Source: a virus
Lineage: Duplodnaviria; Caudoviricetes
Strand: one strand, 5' to 3'
Virus record (IMG/VR): IMGVR_UViG_3300022934_000025
Span: 1 to 55,753 of that record
Length of the DNA: 55,753 nucleotides
In this document: positions 5,675-54,039 of the stretch, one piece after another
Numbering within the stretch: the first letter of the stretch is position 1
How the letters are laid out: every line of letters starts with the position of its first letter
Notes under the pieces: model-generated
What the model was told of the DNA's origin: nothing
What the model saw: only the letters and a program-made list of their open reading frames with translations
Databases searched by the model: none
Program-made: the position numbers and the translations under genes

Positions 5675-7123
5675 ATGATCGGCTACGAATACGAGACCCA
5701 ACCCTACGACCACCAACGTAAAGCGTTCGAAGACTCGTGGGCCGCGGAGTTTTATGCGCTTCTTATGGAGATGGGCACAGGCAAATCAAAGGTTGCCATT
5801 GATACCATGGGGGCATTGTTCGAGGCAGGAAAAATCAAAGCTGCGCTGATCGTTGCGCCGAAAGGGGTCTACGACAACTGGGTCAAAGGCGAAGTGCCGC
5901 TTCACCTCCCGAAGCGGATCGACCGTAGCATTATGCGATGGACGCCAGCAAAAACCCAGCGTTATGAAAATGACCTGAAAGATTTTATCGTGGACCGTGA
6001 TCCGAAGTTGAAGGTCTTCGTAATGAACATCGAAGCGTTCTCCTCTCAACGTGGCACCGAAGCTGCTACGGCATTCCTATACCAGAATCCCGACAACATT
6101 GTGATTGTCGATGAATCAACTACAATAAAGAATAGAAAGGCTGCGAGGACGAAGAACATTATCGCGTTGCAGGCACGGGCTAAATACCGCCGGATATTGA
6201 CCGGCTCCCCTATAACCAAGAGCCCTATGGACCTGTTCAGCCAATGTAACTTCCTTGCCGAAAAGGCGCTCGGCTTCAATAGCTACTACGCATTTCAAGC
6301 GCGTTACGCCAATGTTCAGAAACGGACCATGGGTCATCGCAGTTTTCAACAGATCGTGGGCTATCGACGGTTAGACGAACTATCTGAAAAGTTAGATCGG
6401 TTTAGTAGTCGAGTTCTAAAAGTCGATTGCCTTGATCTTCCGGTCAAAGTCTACACTCGTAGAGAAGTCCACCTTACACCAGAGCAAACCCGCCTGTATG
6501 TGCAGATGAAAAAGCTGGCGCTTGCCAAGCTTGAAAGCGGGGAACTAGCAACCACGGCTAGTGTGCTGACACAGATTATGCGGTTACAACAGATTTGCTG
6601 CGGACATTTGCAGCCAGACGACGGCGAGATACAGACCATTAAAAGCAACCGTTTGAACGAATTACTCGACGTGACTGAAGAGCTTCAGGGAAAAGCCATC
6701 ATTTGGGCGACGTATACACACGACATCCAACAGATAGCTTCTGCCCTGCGCGACCGTTTCGGGCCCGATTCGGTCGCAACCTATTACGGAGCAACACCAC
6801 AAGATGAGCGCCAAGAGATCGTTGAGAGGTTTCAAAACCCCTCTGATCCATTGCGCTTTTTTGTGGGGCAGCCCAAGACTGGTGGTTATGGCATTACGCT
6901 AACCGCTGCCAATACCGTAGTTTACTACAGCAACAGCTACGACCTAGAAATTAGATTGCAGTCAGAAGACCGTGCGCATCGTATTGGTCAGACCAACAAG
7001 GTAACGTACATCGACCTTGTGTCACCGGGCACGATAGATGAAAAGATACTAGAAGCGTTACGCAGTAAGATTGATATAGCCGGTAAGGTGCTTAACGAAG
7101 AAGTACAGGAATGGTTGCGCTAG
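5675..7123 (+). CDS. SNF2-family (SF2) helicase; only clear plus-strand gene
   Basis: MEMGTGKS, VDEST, LTGSP, GGYGITL, QSEDRAHRIGQ. Confidence 0.95.
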   Translation: MIGYEYETQPYDHQRKAFEDSWAAEFYALLMEMGTGKSKVAIDTMGALFEAGKIKAALIVAPKGVYDNWVKGEVPLHLPKRIDRSIMRWTPAKTQRYENDLKDFIVDRDPKLKVFVMNIEAFSSQRGTEAATAFLYQNPDNIVIVDESTTIKNRKAARTKNIIALQARAKYRRILTGSPITKSPMDLFSQCNFLAEKALGFNSYYAFQARYANVQKRTMGHRSFQQIVGYRRLDELSEKLDRFSSRVLKVDCLDLPVKVYTRREVHLTPEQTRLYVQMKKLALAKLESGELATTASVLTQIMRLQQICCGHLQPDDGEIQTIKSNRLNELLDVTEELQGKAIIWATYTHDIQQIASALRDRFGPDSVATYYGATPQDERQEIVERFQNPSDPLRFFVGQPKTGGYGITLTAANTVVYYSNSYDLEIRLQSEDRAHRIGQTNKVTYIDLVSPGTIDEKILEALRSKIDIAGKVLNEEVQEWLR

Positions 7124-32829: not shown

Positions 32830-33303
32830 TTACGAGTCAGCGAATGGAGTGGCTAACGTGCCAGAACCAAGCAAAGTACCTGTTACTAGATATTCATCTG
32901 CGGCAATTGCAGTGACTTCTACATAGGAACCCTCAATACCGCCAGTAGTAGTTCCATTCATAGAAATTACATCGTTTGTTGCAGCGGGCGCGAAGCCACG
33001 AGCCTGTGACGTAGCAGCCGCCGCCAACACCAGATTGCCAACAAACTTGTCAGTGCCGTCTGTTTTGATGTCTAAATCAGACGCTGTAGTGCCAATGAAA
33101 AACACATACTTTGCACCAATAGTGTCGGTAGAAGCAGATGGAAGCGTAACCGCGCCGTCAGCATCGTTGATTTCAATGATGCGACCAACATGGTCAGCAT
33201 ACGTGAGAGTGGTTTCCGCAGTAATGTTTACCACGGCAGTAGAACCTACCGAGGTGAACCCGCGTTCGGACCGTACTGGTCCTGAAAAAGTTGTTTGTCC
33301 CAT
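32830..33303 (-). CDS. Putative head decoration / minor capsid protein
   Basis: TTFSGPVRS N-terminus, NGTTTGG, ATPFADS end. Confidence 0.65.
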   Translation of the reverse strand: MGQTTFSGPVRSERGFTSVGSTAVVNITAETTLTYADHVGRIIEINDADGAVTLPSASTDTIGAKYVFFIGTTASDLDIKTDGTDKFVGNLVLAAAATSQARGFAPAATNDVISMNGTTTGGIEGSYVEVTAIAADEYLVTGTLLGSGTLATPFADS

Positions 33304-33381
33304 ATCTATCTCCTGTCTTGGGTTATGTCAGTCGCAACATGCAACTGTCAGGGATAGGATCAGGATACATTAGAAACAAAT

Positions 33382-33414
33382 AAAAAGAAAGGGGCAACTT
33401 TCGTTACCCCTTTC
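33382..33414 (-). terminator. Terminator after MCP
   Basis: GAAAGGGGTAAC-GAAA-GTTGCCCCTTTC-TTTTT. Confidence 0.85.
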
Positions 33415-33465: not shown

Positions 33466-34374
33466 TTACGCTCCGGGTGTACCGAAAACGCAACGCCAGT
33501 CGGATACACCAAAGCTGTAACGCTCACGCGCCTTGAAGCGCATGTTGCCGGTGTCAAAGTCACCTTCCATTGCCGTTTTAATGGGCGAACGGTTGAAGAA
33601 TTTGAAGCCGTTAGGTGCGTCAGTCTTGATGAAGAATGCGTCAGTATCCGTCAGGAAGTGGTTAACAACCGCTCCTTCTGGAAGCATTCCCATGCTCTTC
33701 ATAGCGTTCAGATCGTTGTCTGCGGTGCCCGAACGCAGGTTAGAGTTGATAACTCTTTCTGCGATGAACTGAAGCTCTTTAGGGATAATAAGCTTCATAC
33801 CACGAACAGCAATCTTCAGACCACGCTCATCAGTCAGACCAGCAATGTCAATCAACATCTGCTCAAGCGAAGTCTCATTGAGGTCCGCAGCAGTTGCCAG
33901 AATGTTAGTCTGGTTGCCTGAAAGGCTTGGGTGTGACGAGGAGCAAAGCGCCGCGCCGTCACCAATAGCAGAAGCACCCGCAGTGAACGCATTGTTCAAG
34001 ATAGCGGCAGCTTTAATCTGCTTGGTCTGAGCCATTGAACGAGCCAAGGCTTTCGTGTAGCGCGATGCGAGACGGTCATAAAGATTATCTTCAATCGCTT
34101 CCTCAGTGATTGAGAACGCAAGCGCAATGGTTTCGTGTGTGTAACGAGCAGTGTAAGTTTCCTGTGCATCGTCAAAGCTGATGGCAGTGCCTTCACCTTT
34201 TACGGGTGCCGTGGAAAAACCACCCAGCATCACTTCCTCTTCAAAGGCTCTGTCCGAAGACTCCTCTTCAAAGATTTCGCTATGCTCATTCTCGTAACGG
34301 TTGTATTCCAGCCCAAACAAAGCATTAAGGCCGGGTTCTAGCTCTTTAGCTAGTTGACTTCTAGAAATAGCCAT
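33466..34374 (-). CDS. Major capsid protein
   Basis: MAISRSQLAKELEPGLNALFGLEY, EEAIEDNLY, FKARERYSFG: well-known marine phage MCP family. Confidence 0.93.
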   Translation of the reverse strand: MAISRSQLAKELEPGLNALFGLEYNRYENEHSEIFEEESSDRAFEEEVMLGGFSTAPVKGEGTAISFDDAQETYTARYTHETIALAFSITEEAIEDNLYDRLASRYTKALARSMAQTKQIKAAAILNNAFTAGASAIGDGAALCSSSHPSLSGNQTNILATAADLNETSLEQMLIDIAGLTDERGLKIAVRGMKLIIPKELQFIAERVINSNLRSGTADNDLNAMKSMGMLPEGAVVNHFLTDTDAFFIKTDAPNGFKFFNRSPIKTAMEGDFDTGNMRFKARERYSFGVSDWRCVFGTPGA

Positions 34375-46079: not shown

Positions 46080-46108
46080 ATTATATGCGATTTTAAGCAC
46101 AAATATAA
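46080..46108 (-). promoter_or_regulatory. Putative promoter of terL/late operon
   Basis: Perfect TATAAT (46085-46080) preceded by ATCGCA box; poor -35. Confidence 0.5.
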
Positions 46109-46179
46109 GACAGTTAATTCTGGTTCGAAATAACTGGTGATTATTTGCGAAAAACATGGCTCAAGCCCCCGCTTCGTAA

Positions 46180-46530
46180 ACACGGGGCCGTGCGCGGTGG
46201 ATCGCGGTTTTTGGCTCCCGCTCCGTGCCATTTGACCCGATACGCTGGGGCCCCTGCCGACGGTTCGCGGCGCTTGGACCATGACCCGCGGCGCTTGGTC
46301 CAGCGGCCATGGCCGCGGATAACTGGCAGCGGCTGGGGTGCATCGTCCGCGGTTTAATTTTCACGGGCTGGGGTTCGGGGTTCGGGGATCGCGCAGCGCG
46401 GCCCGCTGCCGACGGCCTGCCGCCCGCTAACTTTTGCCAACTGGGCACGGCCTGCGGCCATGGGATCGCGGCCCGTAGGTTTTGGGAAGGGAGCGCGGGG
46501 CGGGGCCCGCCTTGTTTAACTGGGAAACAC
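46180..46530. repeat. GC-rich non-coding tract with recurrent CGCGG units
   Basis: Multiple CGCGG; tandem CGCGGCGCTTGG[A/T]CCA; no credible ORF. Confidence 0.55.
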
Positions 46531-46537
46531 TAGGCAC

Positions 46538-46565
46538 AAAAAAAGGCCCGCACGGGGCGGGCCTT
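46538..46565 (-). terminator. Terminator at end of early region
   Basis: AAGGCCCGC stem plus T-run. Confidence 0.85.
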
Positions 46566-46583
46566 CGGTTTGCTGGGGACGGT

Positions 46584-46985
46584 TTAGACGTTGATCGACA
46601 AATCCAGTTCGATGTTCGAATAGTCGACTTCAACGGATATATCCCCGTCGCGGATCATATCTTTGACGGTTTCGCGGATTTTGTCGTCGGTCGCGTCGTC
46701 GGTCTCGTCTTCGCGATCTGCTAGCGTTCGGTCGATATGCTGCCCGATGCGGTCGCGCATCAAATCAAAAAGAACATCCGCCAACTGCTGGCGCTGTTCG
46801 GCGGCGGCTTGTATCTCCGCGCTCATTTTCTGGATGTTCAGTTCCAATCGCTCCGCGTATTCCTGCAAGTTTTTATGATCCAACGCGGCGGCTTTCAAAT
46901 CCGATCCGGTCGCGTCGCGTCCGTCTTGGATATGATCGGCGGCTAATTGGTCCAGATATTCGACGTTCGTTTTAAGTTCAATCAT
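46584..46985 (-). CDS. Early hypothetical coiled-coil protein
   Basis: 133 aa; own promoter, GGAG RBS and terminator. Confidence 0.78.
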   Translation of the reverse strand: MIELKTNVEYLDQLAADHIQDGRDATGSDLKAAALDHKNLQEYAERLELNIQKMSAEIQAAAEQRQQLADVLFDLMRDRIGQHIDRTLADREDETDDATDDKIRETVKDMIRDGDISVEVDYSNIELDLSINV

Positions 46986-47038
46986 GGTTCAGTTTCTCCG
47001 TTGTTAAAGTTGCGACGGCTTGCCCGCCGTCGTATGCG

Positions 47039-47068
47039 ATTATATGCGCTAACTTTTCAAAAAGTAAA
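47039..47068 (-). promoter_or_regulatory. Early promoter
   Basis: TTTACT-18-TATAAT; near-duplicate of 47581-47610. Confidence 0.75.
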
Positions 47069-47073
47069 CCCGC

Positions 47074-47099
47074 AAAAAAAAGGCCGCCCGAAGGCGGCC
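47074..47099 (-). terminator. Terminator
   Basis: GGCCGCC-TTCG-GGCGGCC-T8. Confidence 0.9.
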
Positions 47100-47118
47100 C
47101 GATGCGGCGCGGTTGCGC

Positions 47119-47532
47119 CTAGTCAAATCTGGCGATTTTGGTTTGACGGGTTGCGCGGTCGCGTATGGCGGTAATCCCGTATTCATATACGAAACACTCG
47201 AAACCCTCAAAGATGAAACGCGCCAGCGGTGCCAGTGCTGGATCGTCGTCGTGTTCGCTTTGGTATGTCCCGTTGTGATCGTCAACGGTCCCGCTGAATG
47301 GATAACAAAAGCCGCCAAATTGATAAGCGTCATCCATGCCCGCCGCGATATTGTCCAGCGTCAACGGGTCCGCCGTCATGCAAGCTTGGCAGAAAAAGTC
47401 GGGAATGATCCCGCAAGCTTCCGCCAATTGTGCAGGCGTTGCCCCGCCTAGCTGTTTATCCTGCGCAGGATTGAAAACCCGATCCAGTAATAAGTCGGAC
47501 GGGCGCACATTTAAAGTTCTAACGTTTTCCAT
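47119..47532 (-). CDS. Early hypothetical protein
   Basis: 137 aa; VYEYGITAI...ARFD; cassette with promoter and terminator. Confidence 0.78.
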   Translation of the reverse strand: MENVRTLNVRPSDLLLDRVFNPAQDKQLGGATPAQLAEACGIIPDFFCQACMTADPLTLDNIAAGMDDAYQFGGFCYPFSGTVDDHNGTYQSEHDDDPALAPLARFIFEGFECFVYEYGITAIRDRATRQTKIARFD

Positions 47533-47580
47533 GGTTTTTTACTCCGTAGTAATGCGGCGCTTTATTGCCCCGCGTATGTG

Positions 47581-47610
47581 ATTATATGCGATAACTTTTG
47601 AAAAAGTAAA
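47581..47610 (-). promoter_or_regulatory. Early promoter
   Basis: TTTACT-18-TATAAT. Confidence 0.75.
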
Positions 47611-47618
47611 GTAGAAAC

Positions 47619-47645
47619 AAAAAGGCCCGCACATTGGCGGGCCTT
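47619..47645 (-). terminator. Terminator
   Basis: AAGGCCCGC stem plus T-run; near-identical to 46538-46565. Confidence 0.82.
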
Positions 47646-47666
47646 CGGTTTGCGTTGTCGCTGGTT

Positions 47667-48857
47667 TTATGCGGCGACTTTATCCAGTAACGCGCCCGCC
47701 TTTCGTTCGATTTCAATGCGGGCATCTTGGTGCGGTATGTCCCGCGCAATTGCGGTAATAGCCTGCGCCGCGTCCCAAACTGTTTCAACGGGTCGGCCTT
47801 CTTCTTTTAAATGCCTAGCGTTCGCGGCCTTGGCCATGCGGCCAGATAATCCCGCCCGCTTACTTAGGAAATCAAAACGGCTTTCATCATCGTGCGCAAT
47901 CTTGGCGGCCTTGGCAGCTTGGACGCCTTCAATAAATGTAGACGTTGCACCATGCGCGAAGCTTTCCAAAGCTGGCCGCGCTTCCATCGCGAAACGATCG
48001 GGCGCGAATTTGGTATGCCTAATCTTAATTTCTTGGAAGTTTTCCACGCCCCAAAGATTTCGATTCATACAAACCCCGCGCAGATACATCGCGGCGATGC
48101 CTGCGGTTTTGCTGCCCGTTTCACTGTTCCATGCGTAAAAGCCGCGGAACATCAAATCGGGTTCGCCGTTCGGCAGCTTACCGACTTCGATAGGGTTGCG
48201 GTCGTCAACTAGGAAAACGAAAACGTCGCGGTCGCTGGCGAATAGCGTGGTCGTTTCCATTGTTACTGGCACGTCGGGATCGTAAACGGCTAAACCGTCG
48301 CGGCTTCCCGTCATCATGCCCGGCACTTTCCAACGTCCGCCGCTGGCGTCAACTAGGTTTTTCACTGGTTCCAAAATTTCCCAGTCAAAAATTCGCCCGT
48401 AGTCTGGACCCGTTGCGGCGCGTAAATCCCCGCCGTCGGTTTGGCTACCGTATACCTTGACCAGTTCCCGCCCGCGGTTATAGCGCAAACCCCATTGAAT
48501 ACAGTCCGCCGCCAATGGTGCAGGCAAGTCGCGCAGGTAACCAGCGGGTGCGCCAGATAGCTGGGACAATTGGCCAAAACTCCAATTGGTCGGGGTGTTC
48601 ACGTGGTCGCGGTAATTGTCGTCTTGGTATTCAACGCGCAAATCCCCGCGGCTGGGGTTGCTTTCATCCAGTTCGCCAATGATCTGGATTTTGTGAGTAT
48701 CAACGGTGCGGCTTGTCATCCGCTGGGCGTCAATCTTTTTTGTGGCCAGCATATCATCCAGCGTCAAAAACTTTTGATCGTCGGGACGGCTGAACCATTG
48801 TGATGAAACCGCGCTATTTCCAATGCCATGCGCGAAGGCGTTAGTTGTATAAGTCAT
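47667..48857 (-). CDS. DUF932-family protein
   Basis: WSFGQL, RAATGPDYGRI, NSETG, YLRGVCMNR, KIRH. Confidence 0.8.
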   Translation of the reverse strand: MTYTTNAFAHGIGNSAVSSQWFSRPDDQKFLTLDDMLATKKIDAQRMTSRTVDTHKIQIIGELDESNPSRGDLRVEYQDDNYRDHVNTPTNWSFGQLSQLSGAPAGYLRDLPAPLAADCIQWGLRYNRGRELVKVYGSQTDGGDLRAATGPDYGRIFDWEILEPVKNLVDASGGRWKVPGMMTGSRDGLAVYDPDVPVTMETTTLFASDRDVFVFLVDDRNPIEVGKLPNGEPDLMFRGFYAWNSETGSKTAGIAAMYLRGVCMNRNLWGVENFQEIKIRHTKFAPDRFAMEARPALESFAHGATSTFIEGVQAAKAAKIAHDDESRFDFLSKRAGLSGRMAKAANARHLKEEGRPVETVWDAAQAITAIARDIPHQDARIEIERKAGALLDKVAA

Positions 48858-48910
48858 ATTTTTTACTCCGTAGTTAAAAGTTAAGGGCCGATCATTTCTG
48901 ACCAGCCCCT

Positions 48911-48941
48911 ATAATATCCCATATTATTGTATATGGTGCAA
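48911..48941 (-). promoter_or_regulatory. Putative early promoter
   Basis: TTGCAC...TATTAT (long spacer) with ATCCCATA box. Confidence 0.5.
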
Positions 48942-48958
48942 GCTAATTTTTTAGAAAG

Positions 48959-49672
48959 TTATTCCAGCCCAATGTCGCCCGCAACATGATGCCGAATGAT
49001 CGAACGCGGCGGGAGTGATTTCGCAAACCGCAAAAGCTTTTCCCCGTCCGTTTCATCCGGTTGCGATTGGTTTGAAGTATCGCGCCAATGCAATGCAACG
49101 TTTCCGCCGTCGGCATAACATCCGCCGCGCACGTCGGGATCGGCGGCTTTTTTCTTGCTGGCACCATGCGCGGTAAATCCGATCACATAATCCCTATCAA
49201 GTCGGGCGCACAATGGCAGGCCGTTGCCACAATCGCGGCAGCTAAACCCGTCACGATATTCGGCGGGACATCTAACGACCCGAACACCCCAGCCAGCGGG
49301 TTGGGTTTTTTTACCTTCCCAGCTATCTGGCGAAACGACAGTAACCGACGGGACGCCATTAATAATTGACGCCGCTGCGGCGGCTTTGTTTTCCGTCGAG
49401 AAATTTATGACGGTTTTACCTTCGGCCAATTTACGGTCCCAGCCATATTGGCGCGGATCGAAATGCGAGTAAGTAAACGAGACGCCTTTACGCGGAACCG
49501 CGTCCAATAATGCGTCCAAATAATCTGGATCAATTTTTTGCGATCCCTTCCCGCTGCAATTCATTTTGCAGGCGGCTGGGCAGGTCGCATATTTTTCACC
49601 ATTGCCAGCGCGATAGGTTACCGCGATGCCTTTGGTTTTTTCTGCCCGACTCATTTCTACTGTTTTAAGCAT
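48959..49672 (-). CDS. Cys-rich Gp88/DUF7227-like protein
   Basis: TCPAAC, CPAE...SCRDCG...LC, GFTAHG, GGCYA, RHHVAGD. Confidence 0.65.
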   Translation of the reverse strand: MLKTVEMSRAEKTKGIAVTYRAGNGEKYATCPAACKMNCSGKGSQKIDPDYLDALLDAVPRKGVSFTYSHFDPRQYGWDRKLAEGKTVINFSTENKAAAAASIINGVPSVTVVSPDSWEGKKTQPAGWGVRVVRCPAEYRDGFSCRDCGNGLPLCARLDRDYVIGFTAHGASKKKAADPDVRGGCYADGGNVALHWRDTSNQSQPDETDGEKLLRFAKSLPPRSIIRHHVAGDIGLE

Positions 49673-49916
49673 GGAACATTTCCCCCAATTTGCAGCCCTG
49701 CATTAATCGGGAACGAATAAAGCAAAAATCATATATGTGTTTATTCCAGTAAAAATCGCCGTTGTGAAACATGCGGATCAATTCCCATTCACCCGTTTTA
49801 CTATCCAAAAATTGGATACCATCCCCGCACGGTTCGATCACGTCGGCCTTAATCCAACATTGTGGGACGGTCATGGTGTCACTTATCGCTTCGCGTAGTT
49901 GAATGTATATCGTCAT
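49665..49916 (-). CDS. Early hypothetical protein
   Basis: 83 aa, GGAGG RBS, own promoter. Confidence 0.68.
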   Translation of the reverse strand: MTIYIQLREAISDTMTVPQCWIKADVIEPCGDGIQFLDSKTGEWELIRMFHNGDFYWNKHIYDFCFIRSRLMQGCKLGEMFHA

Positions 49917-49951
49917 CGGTTTGCCCTCCGTAGTTATAAGATATATCGCAT

Positions 49952-49988
49952 ACTATACGACATAAAAAAGCCCGCGGTCAAGCGGGCT
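49952..49988 (-). terminator. Terminator whose loop is the -35 box of the next promoter
   Basis: AGCCCGC-TTGACC-GCGGGCT-TTTTT then TATAGT 18 nt after TTGACC. Confidence 0.75.
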
Positions 49989-50002
49989 AAATTTTTATTT
50001 TT

Positions 50003-50092
50003 TTATCGTCGCCTTCGCTTCGGCTTTGGCCGTAAATCGTCGGCGGCATCTTCCCCAAACAAAAGTTTATAAAGCCATTCGATCAAACCCAT
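50003..50092 (-). CDS. 29-aa amphipathic/basic peptide (not in ORF track)
   Basis: MGLIEWLYKLLFGEDAADDLRPKPKRRRR; GGAGG RBS; TAATG coupling. Confidence 0.6.
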   Translation of the reverse strand: MGLIEWLYKLLFGEDAADDLRPKPKRRRR

Positions 50093-50262
50093 TACACGGC
50101 CTCCACGGTTACGTCGTCATGATAATCGCCGTCATAACTGTTAATAAAATAATCTTCGTCGCCTGCCTTCAATTTTCTTAAAGCATCGTCTTCATCAACA
50201 GCATCAACGTGGTGAACTTCCACGACCGTATAGCTGAACATCACTTTATATTTCTGCGCCAT
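50092..50262 (-). CDS. 56-aa acidic early protein (not in ORF track)
   Basis: MAQKYKVMFSYTVVEVHHVDAVDEDDALRKLKAGDEDYFINSYDGDYHDDVTVEAV; AACTACGGAGG leader. Confidence 0.72.
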   Translation of the reverse strand: MAQKYKVMFSYTVVEVHHVDAVDEDDALRKLKAGDEDYFINSYDGDYHDDVTVEAV

Positions 50263-50290
50263 CGTTTTACCTCCGTAGTTAAATTAATGA

Positions 50291-50770
50291 CTATGGGATT
50301 GTATGCGATGTTGTGGGACTAATCAAGCCAAAAACTTTTTGCCAGTCAAGTGCACCAGCTGCGTGATAATGCGCGGGGACCTTCAACCCTTCCAGCTTCA
50401 GATCAACAGCGTCCGCTCCGCGGTATAAAAAAATTTGCTCAGGTTGATTTTTGGTTTTGTGTTTTTTAACCAAGACCCAAACGCTGGCGTGACCATGATT
50501 GGTTAGCCAAGCCACTTGGTGAGGCCGTAGGTCCACCGCATTACCTGCGGTCGCTTTCAGTTCAATAAAATGAAACTGACCAAACTCGTCACACAAAACA
50601 ACATCGGGCACACCGGGCATCGCCCACGTTTCAAGCCTAGTCGCTTTCAGATTCCTGCCAGTCTTCTCCATCCCCGTTTTCATCTGCCTCCAAAAGTCGG
50701 CTTCTCGCTTTGTCGCGGTTCTGGGGATTGCTCTCTCCTTCGGGAGTAACGTCGATAGTGATCGGGGCAT
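50291..50770 (-). CDS. VRR-NUC / PD-(D/E)xK nuclease (Holliday junction resolvase-like)
   Basis: PGVPD, FIELK, LRPHQVAW; start uncertain. Confidence 0.82.
   Translation of the reverse strand: MPRSLSTLLPKERAIPRTATKREADFWRQMKTGMEKTGRNLKATRLETWAMPGVPDVVLCDEFGQFHFIELKATAGNAVDLRPHQVAWLTNHGHASVWVLVKKHKTKNQPEQIFLYRGADAVDLKLEGLKVPAHYHAAGALDWQKVFGLISPTTSHTIP
50298..50326 (-). promoter_or_regulatory. Early promoter inside the 3' end of the nuclease gene
   Basis: TTGATT-17-TACAAT with three phased ATC[GC]CATA-like boxes. Confidence 0.72.
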
Positions 50771-51254
50771 AACTTTGTTTAATCTCCTTGAGCGCCCTCA
50801 ACACTTCATCCTTGCTCATACTGTCAATGCTGCCAGTGCGGATTTCGCTCTTGTTTACATAAATGTCACCTTGCGCTTGCCCGCGCCTGTATTCTGCCTG
50901 AACGGCTGCGCTGTATGCGCCGTTGTTTAATGCCATGTCGCGGATGACCTGAAGGTCCCGCAAATGGCGTTGGTAGTTCACACCAAACTTTTCATCCAGT
51001 TCTGCACGATAAGCTTGGATCGCTGCCACAACATGAGGGCTGATGTTTGGGTTGGTTAGTTCATACGCTCTGGTGTGAGCAGACCCTGCGGGATAGCCAG
51101 CATTGATTGCTGCCTCTCGCATTGTGATCTGACCATCCTTCGATACCAGTTCTTTAACAAACAGTTCTTGCTTTCGCGTTAGCTGCTGGGCTTTGGTTGC
51201 CTTGGGTCGTCCTACCCTTTTCTTTGGGGCAGGAGCTACTGATTTACTTGGCAT
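50637..51254 (-). CDS. terS: Terminase small subunit
   Basis: LTRKQELFVKEL...REAAINAGYPAGSAHTRAYEL HTH typical of TerS. Confidence 0.8.
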   Translation of the reverse strand: MPSKSVAPAPKKRVGRPKATKAQQLTRKQELFVKELVSKDGQITMREAAINAGYPAGSAHTRAYELTNPNISPHVVAAIQAYRAELDEKFGVNYQRHLRDLQVIRDMALNNGAYSAAVQAEYRRGQAQGDIYVNKSEIRTGSIDSMSKDEVLRALKEIKQSYAPITIDVTPEGESNPQNRDKARSRLLEADENGDGEDWQESESD

Positions 51255-51307
51255 TTAATTCTCCAGTTATTTGGCGATAGTTTGCCATAAAACTAACCCG
51301 CTTTGAA

Positions 51308-51533
51308 TATATAGACAAGAAATCAAAAAAAAATAAAAAACGATCTGACCTCCCTATACGCAATCTTGCCCTTTCTGGTTACACAAACTCGGATACGGTT
51401 ACTTTTTTGTTTTTCACTTATGTAACTTAAAATCTCTTTATATAACAAGAGCTTGCTTGCTTCGGTTACACGGTTACACCGGTTACGGCTATTTTACCGA
51501 AAAAATTTATTTTTTATTTTTACTGTCTATATA
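51308..51533. repeat. AT-rich element: TATATAGACA inverted repeats enclosing GGTTAC iterons; candidate origin or packaging site
   Basis: IR 51308-17/51524-33 with A/T tracts; GGTTAC at 51377, 51397, 51464, 51472, 51481; inverted TGTAAC at 51421. Confidence 0.6.
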
Positions 51534-51671
51534 AGTAAACGCCGTTTACTTGTACCGTGCGCCGCGGCCCCTGATTCCTGTATACTGCCCCTCGGCCCGT
51601 CCCTGTTCACTCCTAGTGGGGGAGTTATGACCCCTGCATCAAACGGCGGGGGCGGGCCACCTCCCTCGCAT

Positions 51672-51700
51672 AAAAAAACCCCCGATCCGAAGACCGGGGG
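51672..51700 (-). terminator. Terminator
   Basis: CCCCCGGTC-TTCG-GATCGGGGG-T7. Confidence 0.85.
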
Positions 51701-51710
51701 CCGTGTTTAA

Positions 51711-52025
51711 CTACTCAGTGTAGACTTCATACCATTCGTCTTCCCCGTCTTTCGCTTTGTGCGTTATGACATGTGGATCGAATGGAAACCCGTAGCTATG
51801 TCCGACGCGGCCTTGGATGGAGTCACGCATTGCGTGACACTCCGCAGCTAAAAGGTCGGTATAACCATATCGGCAAAGATTGAAACCGATGTAAGCCCCA
51901 CCGTCAAAGTAGTCTTGCTTACGTTTCGATTCGAGTCCGTCGGGAAACTTCTCTTTGATGAATCTTTCGATGTCTTCAAGATTGTTAATGACGACCTTGC
52001 CGTCCTTGAGTTCAAAGTCACTCAT
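51711..52025 (-). CDS. Early hypothetical protein (104 aa)
   Basis: Start MSDFELK after AACTACGGAGG leader. Confidence 0.75.
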   Translation of the reverse strand: MSDFELKDGKVVINNLEDIERFIKEKFPDGLESKRKQDYFDGGAYIGFNLCRYGYTDLLAAECHAMRDSIQGRVGHSYGFPFDPHVITHKAKDGEDEWYEVYTE

Positions 52026-52107
52026 GGTGAACCTCCGTAGTTTTTCAATTGTTAAAGAACGTGGGGCTTGCCCGCCCCGCCAACTGGAACTCCCAGTTGG
52101 TAAAAAT

Positions 52108-52136
52108 AGTTTACCACGGGTATGCGATAATGTCAA
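52108..52136 (-). promoter_or_regulatory. Strong sigma70 promoter
   Basis: TTGACA-17-TAAACT with extended TG. Confidence 0.85.
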
Positions 52137-52194
52137 GTCCAATAATGAAGGGAAAGTGGAGAGGTGGTGGAAATCCACTTAATTTTTTAGAAAG

Positions 52195-52500
52195 TTATAT
52201 CGTCGCGGATGGGTGAACGGCGAAGTAGTCCATTCGGTCGTCCCATTGGAAGGTATGTTCTTGCCACTTGGCTGCTTCTTCAGCAAGGCGGTCTTCGATG
52301 GCGGGTGATGAGGTCCACGCCTTGAGGTTCATCTTCAGACTCCACTTAAACTCGTCGGCTTTCTCTTTCCAGTAGTTGGCTTCGTGCGTTCGGCCTTCCC
52401 AGTCGTCTTCCTCTGCCCAAAAGGAGCAGAGGTCGAAGCAAGCCTGATCGCTCAGTGAGCCGTCTCTCATGCGCAGGATCGCGGGCCGTTTACCGTTCAT
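52195..52500 (-). CDS. Hypothetical Trp-rich protein
   Basis: 101 aa, ATGA coupled. Confidence 0.68.
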   Translation of the reverse strand: MNGKRPAILRMRDGSLSDQACFDLCSFWAEEDDWEGRTHEANYWKEKADEFKWSLKMNLKAWTSSPAIEDRLAEEAAKWQEHTFQWDDRMDYFAVHPSATI

Positions 52501-52715
52501 AGCCTGTCCTCGTATTCTTCAACGGATGGGACGGCACCTTCTTCGTCGTCCACTTCTGCATGGATCAAGGCAATGACGTAGGTCGGGTTGATCTGGACGA
52601 TCTTGCCGTTGTCGAGCTTTAGCTCAATCATGTCTTTGCCCCACTTCCATGATGTGACGCTGTAGTTAAGTTGCGTCCCGACGGACGGGTGCATATCAAT
52701 GGTTAGTATTTTCAT
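52497..52715 (-). CDS. Hypothetical protein (72 aa)
   Basis: GAGGA RBS before MKILT. Confidence 0.68.
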   Translation of the reverse strand: MKILTIDMHPSVGTQLNYSVTSWKWGKDMIELKLDNGKIVQINPTYVIALIHAEVDDEEGAVPSVEEYEDRL

Positions 52716-53016
52716 CACGTTCCTCCTCTGCGATGTAGACACGCTTCATTGGTTTAGTGCGAAAGAACCCTTTGTAGTCTGGGTACTCGTGCATGAACAA
52801 CCGAGCGTAAAGCGCAATGAAGTCGTTAGAGATTTTGTATTCGTTACCGGTGGTTACGATCATCGTTTCCCACCGAATCCTGTTGACGATAAGCCATGCT
52901 GAAAGTCTACGGTGCCCTTTCTGGATAGCTTGAAAGGTGAACTTTTTAAATAGCTCATAGAACTCTGGGTTCTCTTTGTGCCACGCCCACCATTTATCTT
53001 TGAGATCGTCTGTCAT
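52696..53016 (-). CDS. Conserved phage protein
   Basis: WHKENP...NRIRWE...YKISNDFIALYARLF...FFRT motif. Confidence 0.75.
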   Translation of the reverse strand: MTDDLKDKWWAWHKENPEFYELFKKFTFQAIQKGHRRLSAWLIVNRIRWETMIVTTGNEYKISNDFIALYARLFMHEYPDYKGFFRTKPMKRVYIAEEERDENTNH

Positions 53017-53351
53017 CCAAATAACGCGAACGCGATAGCTGCAAGGAATCCGCCAACAGCGGCTTGCAGGATGAACTTATGCTTGACGTACCATGGCTCG
53101 TGGTCCGCGTCCCAATGCGCGTCAGTCTCTTCGTAGGTGACATCGACTGCGGTTCGTTCGGCGTTGTTTTTAAAGCACCAAGCTAGGATAGCGCCGCGTT
53201 CCCAACGGTTAACCATCTTTGGCCCGCGGGTCGCGGTGGTTGGAACTTTGACGGGGGATGGAAATTCACCCACCTTTACCTTTCGGTAAACGGTGGGCTT
53301 GCTGACCTGCGCGAGGTCGCACACTTCTTCGATGGTAATCAAATCTTTCAT
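53013..53351 (-). CDS. AlpA-like HTH DNA-binding protein with C-terminal hydrophobic helix
   Basis: LITIEEVCDLAQVSKPTVYRKVKVGEFPSPVK...NRW. Confidence 0.82.
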   Translation of the reverse strand: MKDLITIEEVCDLAQVSKPTVYRKVKVGEFPSPVKVPTTATRGPKMVNRWERGAILAWCFKNNAERTAVDVTYEETDAHWDADHEPWYVKHKFILQAAVGGFLAAIAFALFG

Positions 53352-53379
53352 AACGTTCTCCATGTAGACTTACATAGAG

Positions 53380-53409
53380 ATTGTATGGGATTTTATATAG
53401 AAAAGTCAA
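53380..53409 (-). promoter_or_regulatory. Early promoter
   Basis: TTGACT-18-TACAAT with ATCCCATA box. Confidence 0.75.
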
Positions 53410-53576
53410 CCCTGAAGGATACGTTGCCAGCACTTCTCAAGCTCCGCACTGCGTTGCTTGTCTTCTTCGCTGCCGCTTTCTTCGAGTTGTTTTTGGAAGT
53501 CGGTGACGGCTTTGTTCACCTGATTGACTGCGTAAGGCCAAGGTATTTCTGATACGCGTAGGTTTAGTTCGTCCAT
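53406..53576 (-). CDS. 56-aa hypothetical protein (not in ORF track)
   Basis: MDELNLRVSEIPWPYAV...LEKCWQRILQG; AGGAGG RBS. Confidence 0.7.
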   Translation of the reverse strand: MDELNLRVSEIPWPYAVNQVNKAVTDFQKQLEESGSEEDKQRSAELEKCWQRILQG

Positions 53577-53593
53577 GGTTATCCTCCTAAGAT

Positions 53594-53663
53594 AAAAAAG
53601 CCCCAGCCGGGGGCAACCGTACTGGGGCTGGTTTTAACTACGGAGAACATGTTCACCATGTTC
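53594..53663 (-). ncRNA. Predicted 70-nt trans-acting small RNA antisense to early-gene RBS leaders
   Basis: Own promoter, 5' hairpin GAACAUG/CAUGUUC, seed CUCCGUAGUUAAAA, terminator AGCCCCAG/CUGGGGCU-U5. Confidence 0.7.
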
Positions 53664-53669
53664 AAGCGT

Positions 53670-53699
53670 AGTATAACCCCACCAATATGGGATATGCAA
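53670..53699 (-). promoter_or_regulatory. Promoter of predicted sRNA
   Basis: TTGCAT-18-TATACT, ATCCCATA in spacer. Confidence 0.75.
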
Positions 53700-53702
53700 C
53701 AC

Positions 53703-53906
53703 TTAATCGCATATCTCATTCAAGTTTTCTGGGTATTCCCCAGCTTCTAAGGGATCGACAATAGACAATTGGCAGGTCTTACACATACGAAAGAGATGGG
53801 TGTCCGATTTACCGGTCACCGTAAGGGGCTGCTCACACTTGGGGCACTTATTTTCCACCAGTCTTTTGTGGAACTGTCCCGTTTCCCCCGCTGCTTCCAT
53901 CATGTG
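53703..53906 (-). CDS. Zinc-ribbon protein
   Basis: CPKC...CKTC; GGAG RBS before ATG 53906. Confidence 0.68.
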   Translation of the reverse strand, partial: HMMEAAGETGQFHKRLVENKCPKCEQPLTVTGKSDTHLFRMCKTCQLSIVDPLEAGEYPENLNEICD

Positions 53907-54039
53907 CTGTCTCCATGTACCACTCAAAGACCAGACGTAATTGTCCGCCGATGGTTCGGCCTTCCTTTTTCGAAAGGGCCTTTATCTCTTCATACACTTC
54001 CCGCGGTACGAGACTGCTTTTCCAACGATCTGTATCCAT
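53848..54039 (-). CDS. Ribbon-helix-helix (Arc-like) DNA-binding protein
   Basis: KSSLVPREVYEEIKALSKKEGRTIGGQLRLV. Confidence 0.72.
   Translation of the reverse strand: MDTDRWKSSLVPREVYEEIKALSKKEGRTIGGQLRLVFEWYMETAHDGSSGGNGTVPQKTGGK

Follow-up and report, generated by a model that had tools for sequence, protein, structure and literature searches.

What is encoded by a short noncoding interval in a tailed-phage genome, and why does the complement of its core stand in front of several start codons of the same phage? In this study, this question was addressed in IMG/VR virus record IMGVR_UViG_3300022934_000025 (Caudoviricetes), which was analysed over its whole length of 55,753 bp. This stretch, called the window below, is the complete record, with a completeness estimate of 99%. 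A reading of the letters alone had proposed that the interval at 53594-53699 encodes a small RNA (sRNA) that pairs with the ribosome-binding site (RBS) leaders of the phage's own early genes. On sequence evidence, the locus is a real and conserved small-RNA gene, and its RNA family is new but belongs to a general class that is already known. Moreover, pairing of the predicted sRNA with several RBS leaders of its own phage is supported by comparison across relatives, and this one sRNA probably controls the translation of several leader-bearing genes together. These statements draw on computed RNA structure, seed conservation, complementarity, lineage-specific matching and module co-occurrence.

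The predicted anti-leader sRNA is approximately 70 nt long and extends on the minus strand from the inferred transcription start (+1) through the end of a U-run (53594..53663). It is preceded on the same strand by a sigma-70-like promoter (53670..53699) composed of TTGCAT (53699-53694), an 18-nt spacer and TATACT (53675-53670), and TTGCWT- and TATAMT-like hexamers hold their position across relatives. The RNA begins with a 5' hairpin of 7 bp and a 5-nt loop, GAACAUG-GUGAA-CAUGUUC (53645..53663, minus strand), of which G53663 is the predicted +1. This hairpin is followed by the single-stranded seed CUCCGUAGUUAAAA (53632..53645, minus strand), whose core is unpaired in the minimum-energy fold and which is the perfect 14-nt complement of positions 48866-48879. 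The 3' part consists of a terminator hairpin (53599..53629, minus strand) with the apical hexaloop UUGCCC (53616-53611) and a U6 run behind it (53599-53594, minus strand), and a simple scan lists it as a terminator-like hairpin. The minimum-energy fold (-31.2 kcal/mol, z -4.17) contains the 5' hairpin, the unpaired core and the terminator hairpin. The promoter hexamers, the hairpin starting at +1, the seed, the terminator and the total length of 70 nt had all been named in the original prediction, and the sequence confirms each of them in its place.

The locus is conserved as an RNA. A protein scan with polA yielded at least 599 related stretches, and the best 80 loci of these were used. The noncoding locus was found by nhmmer in 63 of the 80 polA-linked loci, with a single copy in each and invariably on the polA strand. 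A further ten loci without a copy have 100-1663 nt after polA and are uninformative, the sole doubtful one being the locus with 1663 nt (L039). A covariance model that was structured by hand with both helices matched 78 of 100 sources with one copy each; a plain model built from a MAFFT alignment had lacked the 5' hairpin. In an alignment of 47 distinct rows, which was fitted to the structure and so favours pairing, 97.1% of the structure cells form standard pairs as against 79.4% in shuffles. Compensatory changes on both sides were present in 13 of the 18 pairs (6/7 in the 5' hairpin and 7/11 in the terminator hairpin), the observed values were reached by none of 500 shuffles, and slid partner columns pair at just 35-47%. 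Moreover, when the sequences were folded independently, 42 of the 43 distinct variants formed the 5' hairpin, through stems of many unrelated sequences. In the same 47 rows, the C-UCCGUAG-U columns are 91-100% conserved and the UUGCCC loop 98%; the columns of the 5'-hairpin stem are mostly 43-70% conserved, with 89% and 100% in the closing G-C pair. The element has a GC-rich covarying hairpin followed by U6, as in an intrinsic terminator, and a conserved unpaired seed, as in a trans-encoded sRNA. The earlier claim of a separate small-RNA gene is upheld by the conserved promoter, the covarying helices and the conserved single-stranded seed in relatives.

At gathering scores, Rfam gave no match at the locus, and at E-values up to 10 it gave only weak sub-threshold matches to unrelated families, with no c4 among them. 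Searches of the locus against GenBank phages with blastn and megablast returned no match. The GenBank relatives HTVC027P, HTVC023P, 023Pt_psg01 and DSL-LC04 contain no copy of the sRNA and carry 0-1 CTACGGAG per genome. A weak match of the model in DSL-LC04 (E 0.5) proved to be an ordinary leader of an opposite-strand gene and was rejected.

Which RNAs might the seed recognise? Exact copies of the motif AACTACGGAG occur five times in the window, on the minus strand at 48866, 49926, 50271 and 52033 and on the plus strand at 53636 alone, in agreement with the claim that the locus is the only copy in the opposite orientation. Every minus-strand copy lies 7-10 nt ahead of an ATG. With up to one mismatch, seven copies were counted against 2.75 expected, a number that was reached in 2 of 100 shuffles, and zero copies lie in the window outside 46994-53645; for an exact 10-mer, an arithmetic estimate gives approximately 0.1 copies per 111 kb.

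Six leaders, all on the minus strand, are predicted targets. The best non-self site of the window is UUUAACUACGGAG (50271..50283; -19.8 kcal/mol), which precedes the ATG at 50262 of a 56-aa open reading frame (ORF). The others are UUUUAACUACGGAG (48866..48879; ATG 48857 of a 396-aa DUF932 protein; -19.7 kcal/mol), UAACUACGGAG(GGCAAACC) (49926..49936; ATG 49916 of an 83-aa ORF; -18.4 kcal/mol), UUUAACAACGGAGAA with a 14/15 match (46994..47008; ATG 46985 of a 133-aa ORF; -17.4 kcal/mol), AACUACGGAG (52033..52042; 7 nt before ATG 52025 of a 104-aa ORF with no family; -16.9 kcal/mol) and, as the weakest of the six, ACUACGGAG (47542..47550; ATG 47532 of a 137-aa ORF; -14.6 kcal/mol). The match lengths given for them beforehand (14, 13, 11, 10, 9 and 14/15) agree with the sequence. 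When both strands of the window were scanned for duplexes, these six took ranks 1, 3, 4, 8, 9 and 22 among non-self sites. Among 27 start regions they were the best six, at -14.6 to -19.8 kcal/mol, and none of the remaining 21 was better than -12.3 kcal/mol, so that the expectation that these leaders would be the top predicted targets held good. Complementarity to the initiation regions of several distant mRNAs exceeds chance, as is characteristic of trans-encoded sRNAs. In the leader at 49926..49936, the GGGCAA(A)CC that follows the Shine-Dalgarno sequence (SD) is kept in relatives.

The target leaders lie 1.6-6.7 kb from the sRNA locus, between polA and terL, and each target cassette has its own sigma-70-like promoter and terminator. 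The original prediction had described the targets as early host-takeover genes, a description that found no support: they are small ORFs without a family plus the one DUF932 protein, most of them with no known function, they are situated between the replication and packaging modules, and terS sits among them. Their boundaries suggest that the cassettes are assembled from repeated modules, with an exact 19-nt direct repeat at cassette boundaries (48944-48962 and 52180-52198) and a 55-nt repeat, 85% identical, covering terminator-promoter junctions (47031-47085 and 47573-47627). In addition, the second-best predicted seed site, UUUUAGCUGCGGAGU (-19.7 kcal/mol), lies within the 104-aa ORF and is directly followed by a perfect palindromic hairpin, GUCACGCAAUGCGUGAC (51839-51862, minus strand).

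If seed and leaders pair, they should change together, and the relatives offer such a comparison. The bases after GUAG vary by lineage (UUGAC, AAGAGAC, UAGAGAC, UUAAGAC, UAAAA and others). Loci with at least 4.5 kb downstream were taken, and the start regions of ORFs of at least 40 codons were scored against every lineage's seed; the main effects of seed and locus were removed, and permuted assignments served as the null. In set 1 (20 loci, 16 seeds), the own-seed residual was -1.04 compared with 0.00 +/- 0.25, and none of 20,000 permutations reached it (p 5e-5), in a test that controls shared ancestry only partly since related lineages are not independent. Shorter seeds gave p = 1e-4 (14 nt) and p = 8e-4 (12 nt). 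Set 2 (14 loci, 9 seeds, from other contigs), which shares seed families with set 1, gave p = 0.014, and the pooled sets gave p = 5e-5. The clear cases are L027 (seed CUCCGUAGAAGAGACU, leader AGUCUCUUUAACUACGGAGG), L034, L035 and L045 (seed CCUUCGUAGUUGAA, leaders UUCAACUAUGGAGG and CUACGAAGG). The covariation of seed and leader that the original prediction had anticipated in related phages is thus present, within that partial control of ancestry.

The comparison also revealed a second module, which was absent from the first reading and is new here: the complementarity of the sRNA loop UUGCCC to GGGCAA loops in the leaders. Among 6658 contexts of gene-strand hairpins with stems of at least 5 bp in these phages, GGGCAA is the commonest hexaloop, with 43 distinct contexts, and the stems that carry it vary widely. 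Half of the distinct GGGCAA hairpins (22 of 44) stand 4-33 nt ahead of the leader motif and a start codon (60-nt limit), compared with 116 of 6568 other hexaloop hairpins (1.8%) that have both within 60 nt. In the window, such hairpins stand in the 5' untranslated regions of two targets on the minus strand. One, GGGGC-GGGCAA-GCCCC (52063..52078), has a loop complementary to that of the sRNA and lies ahead of the leader at 52033; the other, CGACGGC-GGGCAA-GCCGUCG (47013..47032), directly follows a TATAAT promoter and lies ahead of the leader at 46994. The order of the modules is the GGGCAA loop and then the SD motif in the leader, and the seed and then the UUGCCC loop in the sRNA, as fits antiparallel pairing. 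Because the order matches in this way, the sRNA reads as the reverse complement of the whole composite leader. This suggests, as an inference from sequence, that the sRNA originated as an inverted copy of a leader, and such a copy in turn suggests recognition by a kissing loop plus the seed. A search of the window for a longer complement around the sRNA loop (GGGGGCAACC) gave the locus alone, at the chance level; the signal that proved informative was the 6-nt complement of the loop within hairpin loops.

Two other hairpins with these loops deserve mention. The GGGCAA hairpin inside the 137-aa ORF (47433-47450) is kept in several relatives. A terminator-like hairpin, GAAAG-UUGCCC-CUUUC with a U-run (33387-33402, minus strand), lies between the capsid gene and a Mu-gpT-DE element; since it shares the hexaloop of the sRNA, the 3' end of the capsid mRNA could contact GGGCAA loops. 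The Mu-gpT-DE RNA itself is an Rfam match (RF03012; 68 bits, gathering score 49) at 33301-33353 (minus strand), and the major capsid gene (33466-34374) lies just upstream of it.

The sRNA promoter also carries a sign of protein control, which the first reading had not noted. The palindrome TATGCGAT-N12-ATCCCATA (53686..53713, minus strand; TATGCGAT-N12-ATCSCATA in relatives) flanks the -35 hexamer and is a probable operator for a DNA-binding protein. A degenerate pattern of this 28-nt palindrome matched 97 IMG/VR contigs exactly, with one match each among the matches listed. The window contains 13 copies of the half-site ATCSCATA, where 2.3 would be expected, and 11 of these lie within 46084-53713, mostly on the minus strand. 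At the cassette promoters the half-sites frame the -10 hexamer as direct repeats 10 bp apart (ATCGCA-TAYAAT-CSCATA), and at the sRNA promoter they are palindromic around the -35. ATCSCATA is probably the site of a phage regulator, and because it is common to both kinds of promoter, one DNA-binding protein probably controls the cassettes and the sRNA alike. Candidates for this protein are the AlpA-like helix-turn-helix protein (53363-53013) and the Zn-ribbon protein (53927-53703).

Lineages in which the locus differs bear on which of its parts is kept. Seven of the 80 loci (L068, L071, L075, L076, L078, L079 and L080) lack the element described above, referred to as scaffold 1. In each of them, a single CTACGGAG stands on the opposite strand some hundreds of bases beyond polA, so that the gene strand reads CUCCGUAG there. 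In the four that were examined closely (L068, L071, L075 and L080), a small hairpin (GUGCUCCGUAGGCAC) holds CUCCGUAG in its loop, with a second CUCCGUG ahead of CUCCGUAG; after this hairpin come an unrelated strong U8 terminator and then a separate promoter for the next gene. By this arrangement, the scaffold-2 RNA is clearly predicted to be its own transcription unit. Since scaffold 2 keeps CUCCGUAG on a different structure, the seed is the part retained by selection. Furthermore, five loci (L117, L121, L128, L144 and L160) combine the identical 28-nt promoter/operator with a different RNA of ~100 nt that lacks CUCCGUAG. The distal modules follow these differences. In the 241 kb downstream of scaffold 1 (31 loci), the gene strand carries 55 GGGCAA loops and the opposite strand 3, and the leader motif was counted 125 times. 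Scaffold 2 lacks the UUGCCC loop, and downstream of it (5 loci, 32 kb) there were 0 GGGCAA loops and 28 leaders, and downstream of the seed-less class (5 loci, 14 kb), 0 GGGCAA loops and 1 leader, these last two classes representing only ~2 independent lineages each. That seed and leader motif are present together or absent together across lineages is supported by these counts and by the four GenBank relatives named above.

Taken together, it is fairly probable that the locus is a stand-alone, trans-acting RNA gene of ~70 nt whose product recognises the shared composite leader of the phage's own cassettes and covers their RBSs. In such a mechanism, a host-type promoter inside a palindromic operator would drive the sRNA, which would consist of a protective 5' hairpin, the single-stranded seed (C)UCCGUAGUU and a terminator hairpin with the near-invariant UUGCCC loop. 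A cassette leader would consist of a 5' hairpin with the GGGCAA hexaloop and, after 4-33 nt, (A)ACUACGGAG containing the SD, followed by the start codon. The UUGCCC and GGGCAA loops would kiss first; the seed would then zip onto ACUACGGAG and cover the ribosome-binding site, and the translation of all leader-bearing cassettes would fall together, possibly with mRNA decay. A cassette that acquired the leader would enter the same control. From these features we infer that the sRNA is transcribed, where it starts, that it pairs in vivo, and both the sign and the timing of its effect; repression is deduced from the geometry of the duplex and from general knowledge of bacterial sRNAs.

Several observations weigh against this account, besides the fitted alignment, the shared ancestry and seed families of the tested sets and the few independent lineages of the deviating classes given above. 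The sRNA promoter is weak by consensus, with 8 of 12 positions matched, and a simple sigma-70 scan misses it because the -35 matches just 3 of 6 positions. Folding predicts pairing between part of the seed extension and the sRNA's own U-tail, and the U-runs after the terminator hairpin are interrupted in many relatives. No own-seed preference was seen in the lineages with seed ACUCCGUAGUAAAA, in L053 or in scaffold 2 (ranks 6-14 of 16). GGGCAA hairpins also lie in coding regions of the minus strand, in the 137-aa ORF (47433-47450) and in terS (50873-50886). Moreover, the metatranscriptome data provide no transcript evidence, as they are low-depth assembled contigs without strand or ends. Six RNA runs each contained 5-9% of the sampled words, and four were examined; a 505-nt contig of X3 spans 53475-53979 and so runs through the locus and its neighbours, and the contigs of X2 stop at 53579 and resume at 53703, neither of which speaks for or against a transcript.

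Is the element instead a cis-acting leader of the gene behind it? In that case, the promoter would drive the 56-aa ORF at 53576-53406, the hairpin would partly terminate, CUCC would sequester the SD in the read-through RNA and the short RNA would be a by-product. The position of the next gene agrees with this: its SD (AGGAGG, 53583..53588, minus strand) and its ATG at 53576 directly follow the U-run, as they do in most relatives, and the interrupted U-runs of many relatives would allow read-through. In addition, 5 of 7 minimum-energy folds of read-through RNA join CUCC of the seed to this SD, so that a cis role, which the original prediction had not considered, may coexist with the trans role or dominate it, which also tells against the trans-acting account. 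A cis partner, however, needs CUCC alone, and GUAG(U) is equally conserved without a complement near the downstream SD. In scaffold 2, moreover, CUCCGUAG precedes a strong U8 terminator and a separate promoter of the next gene, and a cis-acting leader leaves both the lineage-specific match to distant leaders and the co-occurrence of the modules unexplained. An attenuator with a by-product RNA is thus considered rather unlikely.

A comparably low probability is assigned to the idea that the sRNA does pair with the leaders and yet guides double-strand-specific processing, stabilises the mRNAs or alters termination in the leader, rather than shutting off translation. The same evidence of pairing applies to such outcomes, the computations give no sign of the effect, and the leader hairpins lie near U-rich stretches. 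Translational shut-off is favoured over them by the position of the duplex, which spans GGAG and reaches to 7-10 nt from the start codon; a duplex of a bacterial sRNA over the SD near the start codon blocks 30S binding. Furthermore, the SD is not buried in any leader structure that the sRNA could open.

It is very unlikely that no RNA-RNA pairing takes place at all, CTACGGAG and the GGGCAA/UUGCCC hairpins being protein sites or DNA signals and the locus an inverted leader copy kept as a terminator or operator. Such an explanation would suit the plus strand of the locus, which looks like a complete leader (GGGCAA-loop hairpin, TTTT, AACTACGGAG, ATG), the palindrome of a protein-binding type at the promoter and the UUGCCC-loop terminator that also follows the capsid gene. 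A protein site, however, would not require lineage-specific complementarity in the variable extension; the conserved promoter is oriented in the anti-leader direction, the leader motif keeps a fixed strand and start-codon distance, and scaffold 2 retains the seed alone. The original prediction had itself named a plus-strand peptide as another source of the motif, and this explanation, a 33-aa protein (53649-53750) translated from GGAG-AAC-ATG with the motif merely as its RBS, is exceedingly improbable and was rejected: the ORF exists in the window and the motif is followed by an ATG at 2-13 nt in 41 of 55 distinct variants, but the ATG is missing in 14 of the 55, ORF lengths range from 5 to >54 codons, the frame in which the conserved palindrome is read changes from lineage to lineage, the locus evolves via compensatory hairpin changes, the spacing from GGAG to ATG is 3 nt in the window, and a terminator-like hairpin stands directly upstream on the plus strand. 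A cis-encoded antisense RNA was also considered and discarded, as the opposite strand has no conserved ORF and the targets are 1.6-6.7 kb distant.

A trans-acting anti-leader RNA has partial counterparts in known systems. The closest of them is the c4 RNA of phages P1 and P7, which is cut from the icd-ant operon's own transcript. According to the available portion of a 2025 review (PMC12197685), c4 (immI) is a phage RNA of ~77 nt with short complementary elements thought to lie in loops, its binding to the RBS region blocks translation, and sequence differences determine specificity between related phages. However, c4 acts on one adjacent operon (icd-ant), whereas the sRNA of the window has a predicted promoter of its own and at least six dispersed targets with a standard leader. 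Moreover, unlike c4, it uses a single-stranded seed plus one loop, and it gave no c4 match in Rfam.

Trans-encoded bacterial sRNAs have 5' structure, an unpaired conserved seed and a Rho-independent terminator, and bind several mRNAs at the SD; in Staphylococcus, C-rich stretches of RNAIII and the Rsa RNAs pair with G-rich ribosome-binding sites. The sRNA of the window has the same build and the same predicted SD occlusion, but it targets the phage's own genes through a near-identical leader, unlike the partial matches of bacterial sRNAs to unrelated mRNAs. Because the targets share this leader, the sRNA may be regarded as an antisense copy of a repeated module. The proposed two-step recognition resembles that of the plasmid antisense RNAs CopA/CopT, RNA I/RNA II and hok/sok, in which loop-loop contact is followed by extended pairing that covers the RBS. 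Those RNAs are transcribed opposite a single target; the present one is 1.6-6.7 kb from its targets, and only loop and seed are complementary, the stems not. The logic by which one phage factor shuts off a set of phage mRNAs via a shared RBS signal is also that of RegB and RegA of T4, of which RegA is a translational repressor and RegB an endoribonuclease that cuts within GGAG. RegB and RegA are proteins, whereas the factor here would be an RNA with specificity by base pairing. Finally, the CI RNA of P4 is likewise a small phage RNA directed against repeated complementary sites in the phage's own transcripts, where it causes premature transcription termination and prophage immunity; the pairing predicted here covers SDs instead.

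The genome setting is as follows. Nearly all genes of the window are carried by the minus strand, and the sole large plus-strand gene, opposed to the rest of the genome, encodes a SNF2-family helicase (5675-7123). The polA gene is interrupted by the record ends, with its N-terminal exonuclease part at 518-3 and the remainder at 55753-54167 (minus strand), so that the genome is circular or circularly permuted. The minus-strand order begins with AEP primase, UvrD-like helicase, polA, a Zn-ribbon ORF (53927-53703), the sRNA locus and the 56-aa ORF, and continues with an AlpA-like helix-turn-helix protein, small ORFs, terS, more small ORFs including DUF7227 and DUF932, terL and the structural genes. 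TerL shares 55-63% identity with those of Pelagibacter phages HTVC027P and HTVC023P and of phage 023Pt_psg01. No lysogeny module was seen among the ORFs examined in the window.

With respect to earlier reports, the literature searches made here found no description of this RNA, the main text of PMC9599517 included. The available portion of Fremin et al. 2023 (PMC10690425) reports 10,006 structured RNAs predicted from viral sequences, and the lists of that paper may already contain the motif. Of the phage sRNAs listed in the 2025 review (PMC12197685), most act on genes of the host or on just one adjacent gene of the phage.

A wider model remains tentative and is, in our estimation, doubtful as a whole. 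Accessory cassettes would carry an RNA address label, the GGGCAA kissing hairpin plus the ACUACGGAG RBS, which one anti-leader RNA would read in two steps, and cassettes would join the regulon by carrying the label. Specificity groups would be set by the lineage-specific seed extensions and the two scaffolds. In these widespread, uncultivated marine podophages, which have no obvious lysogeny genes, the RNA could also act against a related phage that enters the cell by silencing its cassettes, as an RNA-based superinfection control. IMG/VR holds many members of the phage group, with at least 599 related stretches and 97 contigs that carry the exact promoter pattern, and on account of this abundance marine viral communities would frequently contain this regulatory RNA, which has no Rfam family. 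One RNA matched to many separately transcribed cassettes of its own phage via a modular leader would provide a simple and portable co-regulation of mosaic accessory genes.

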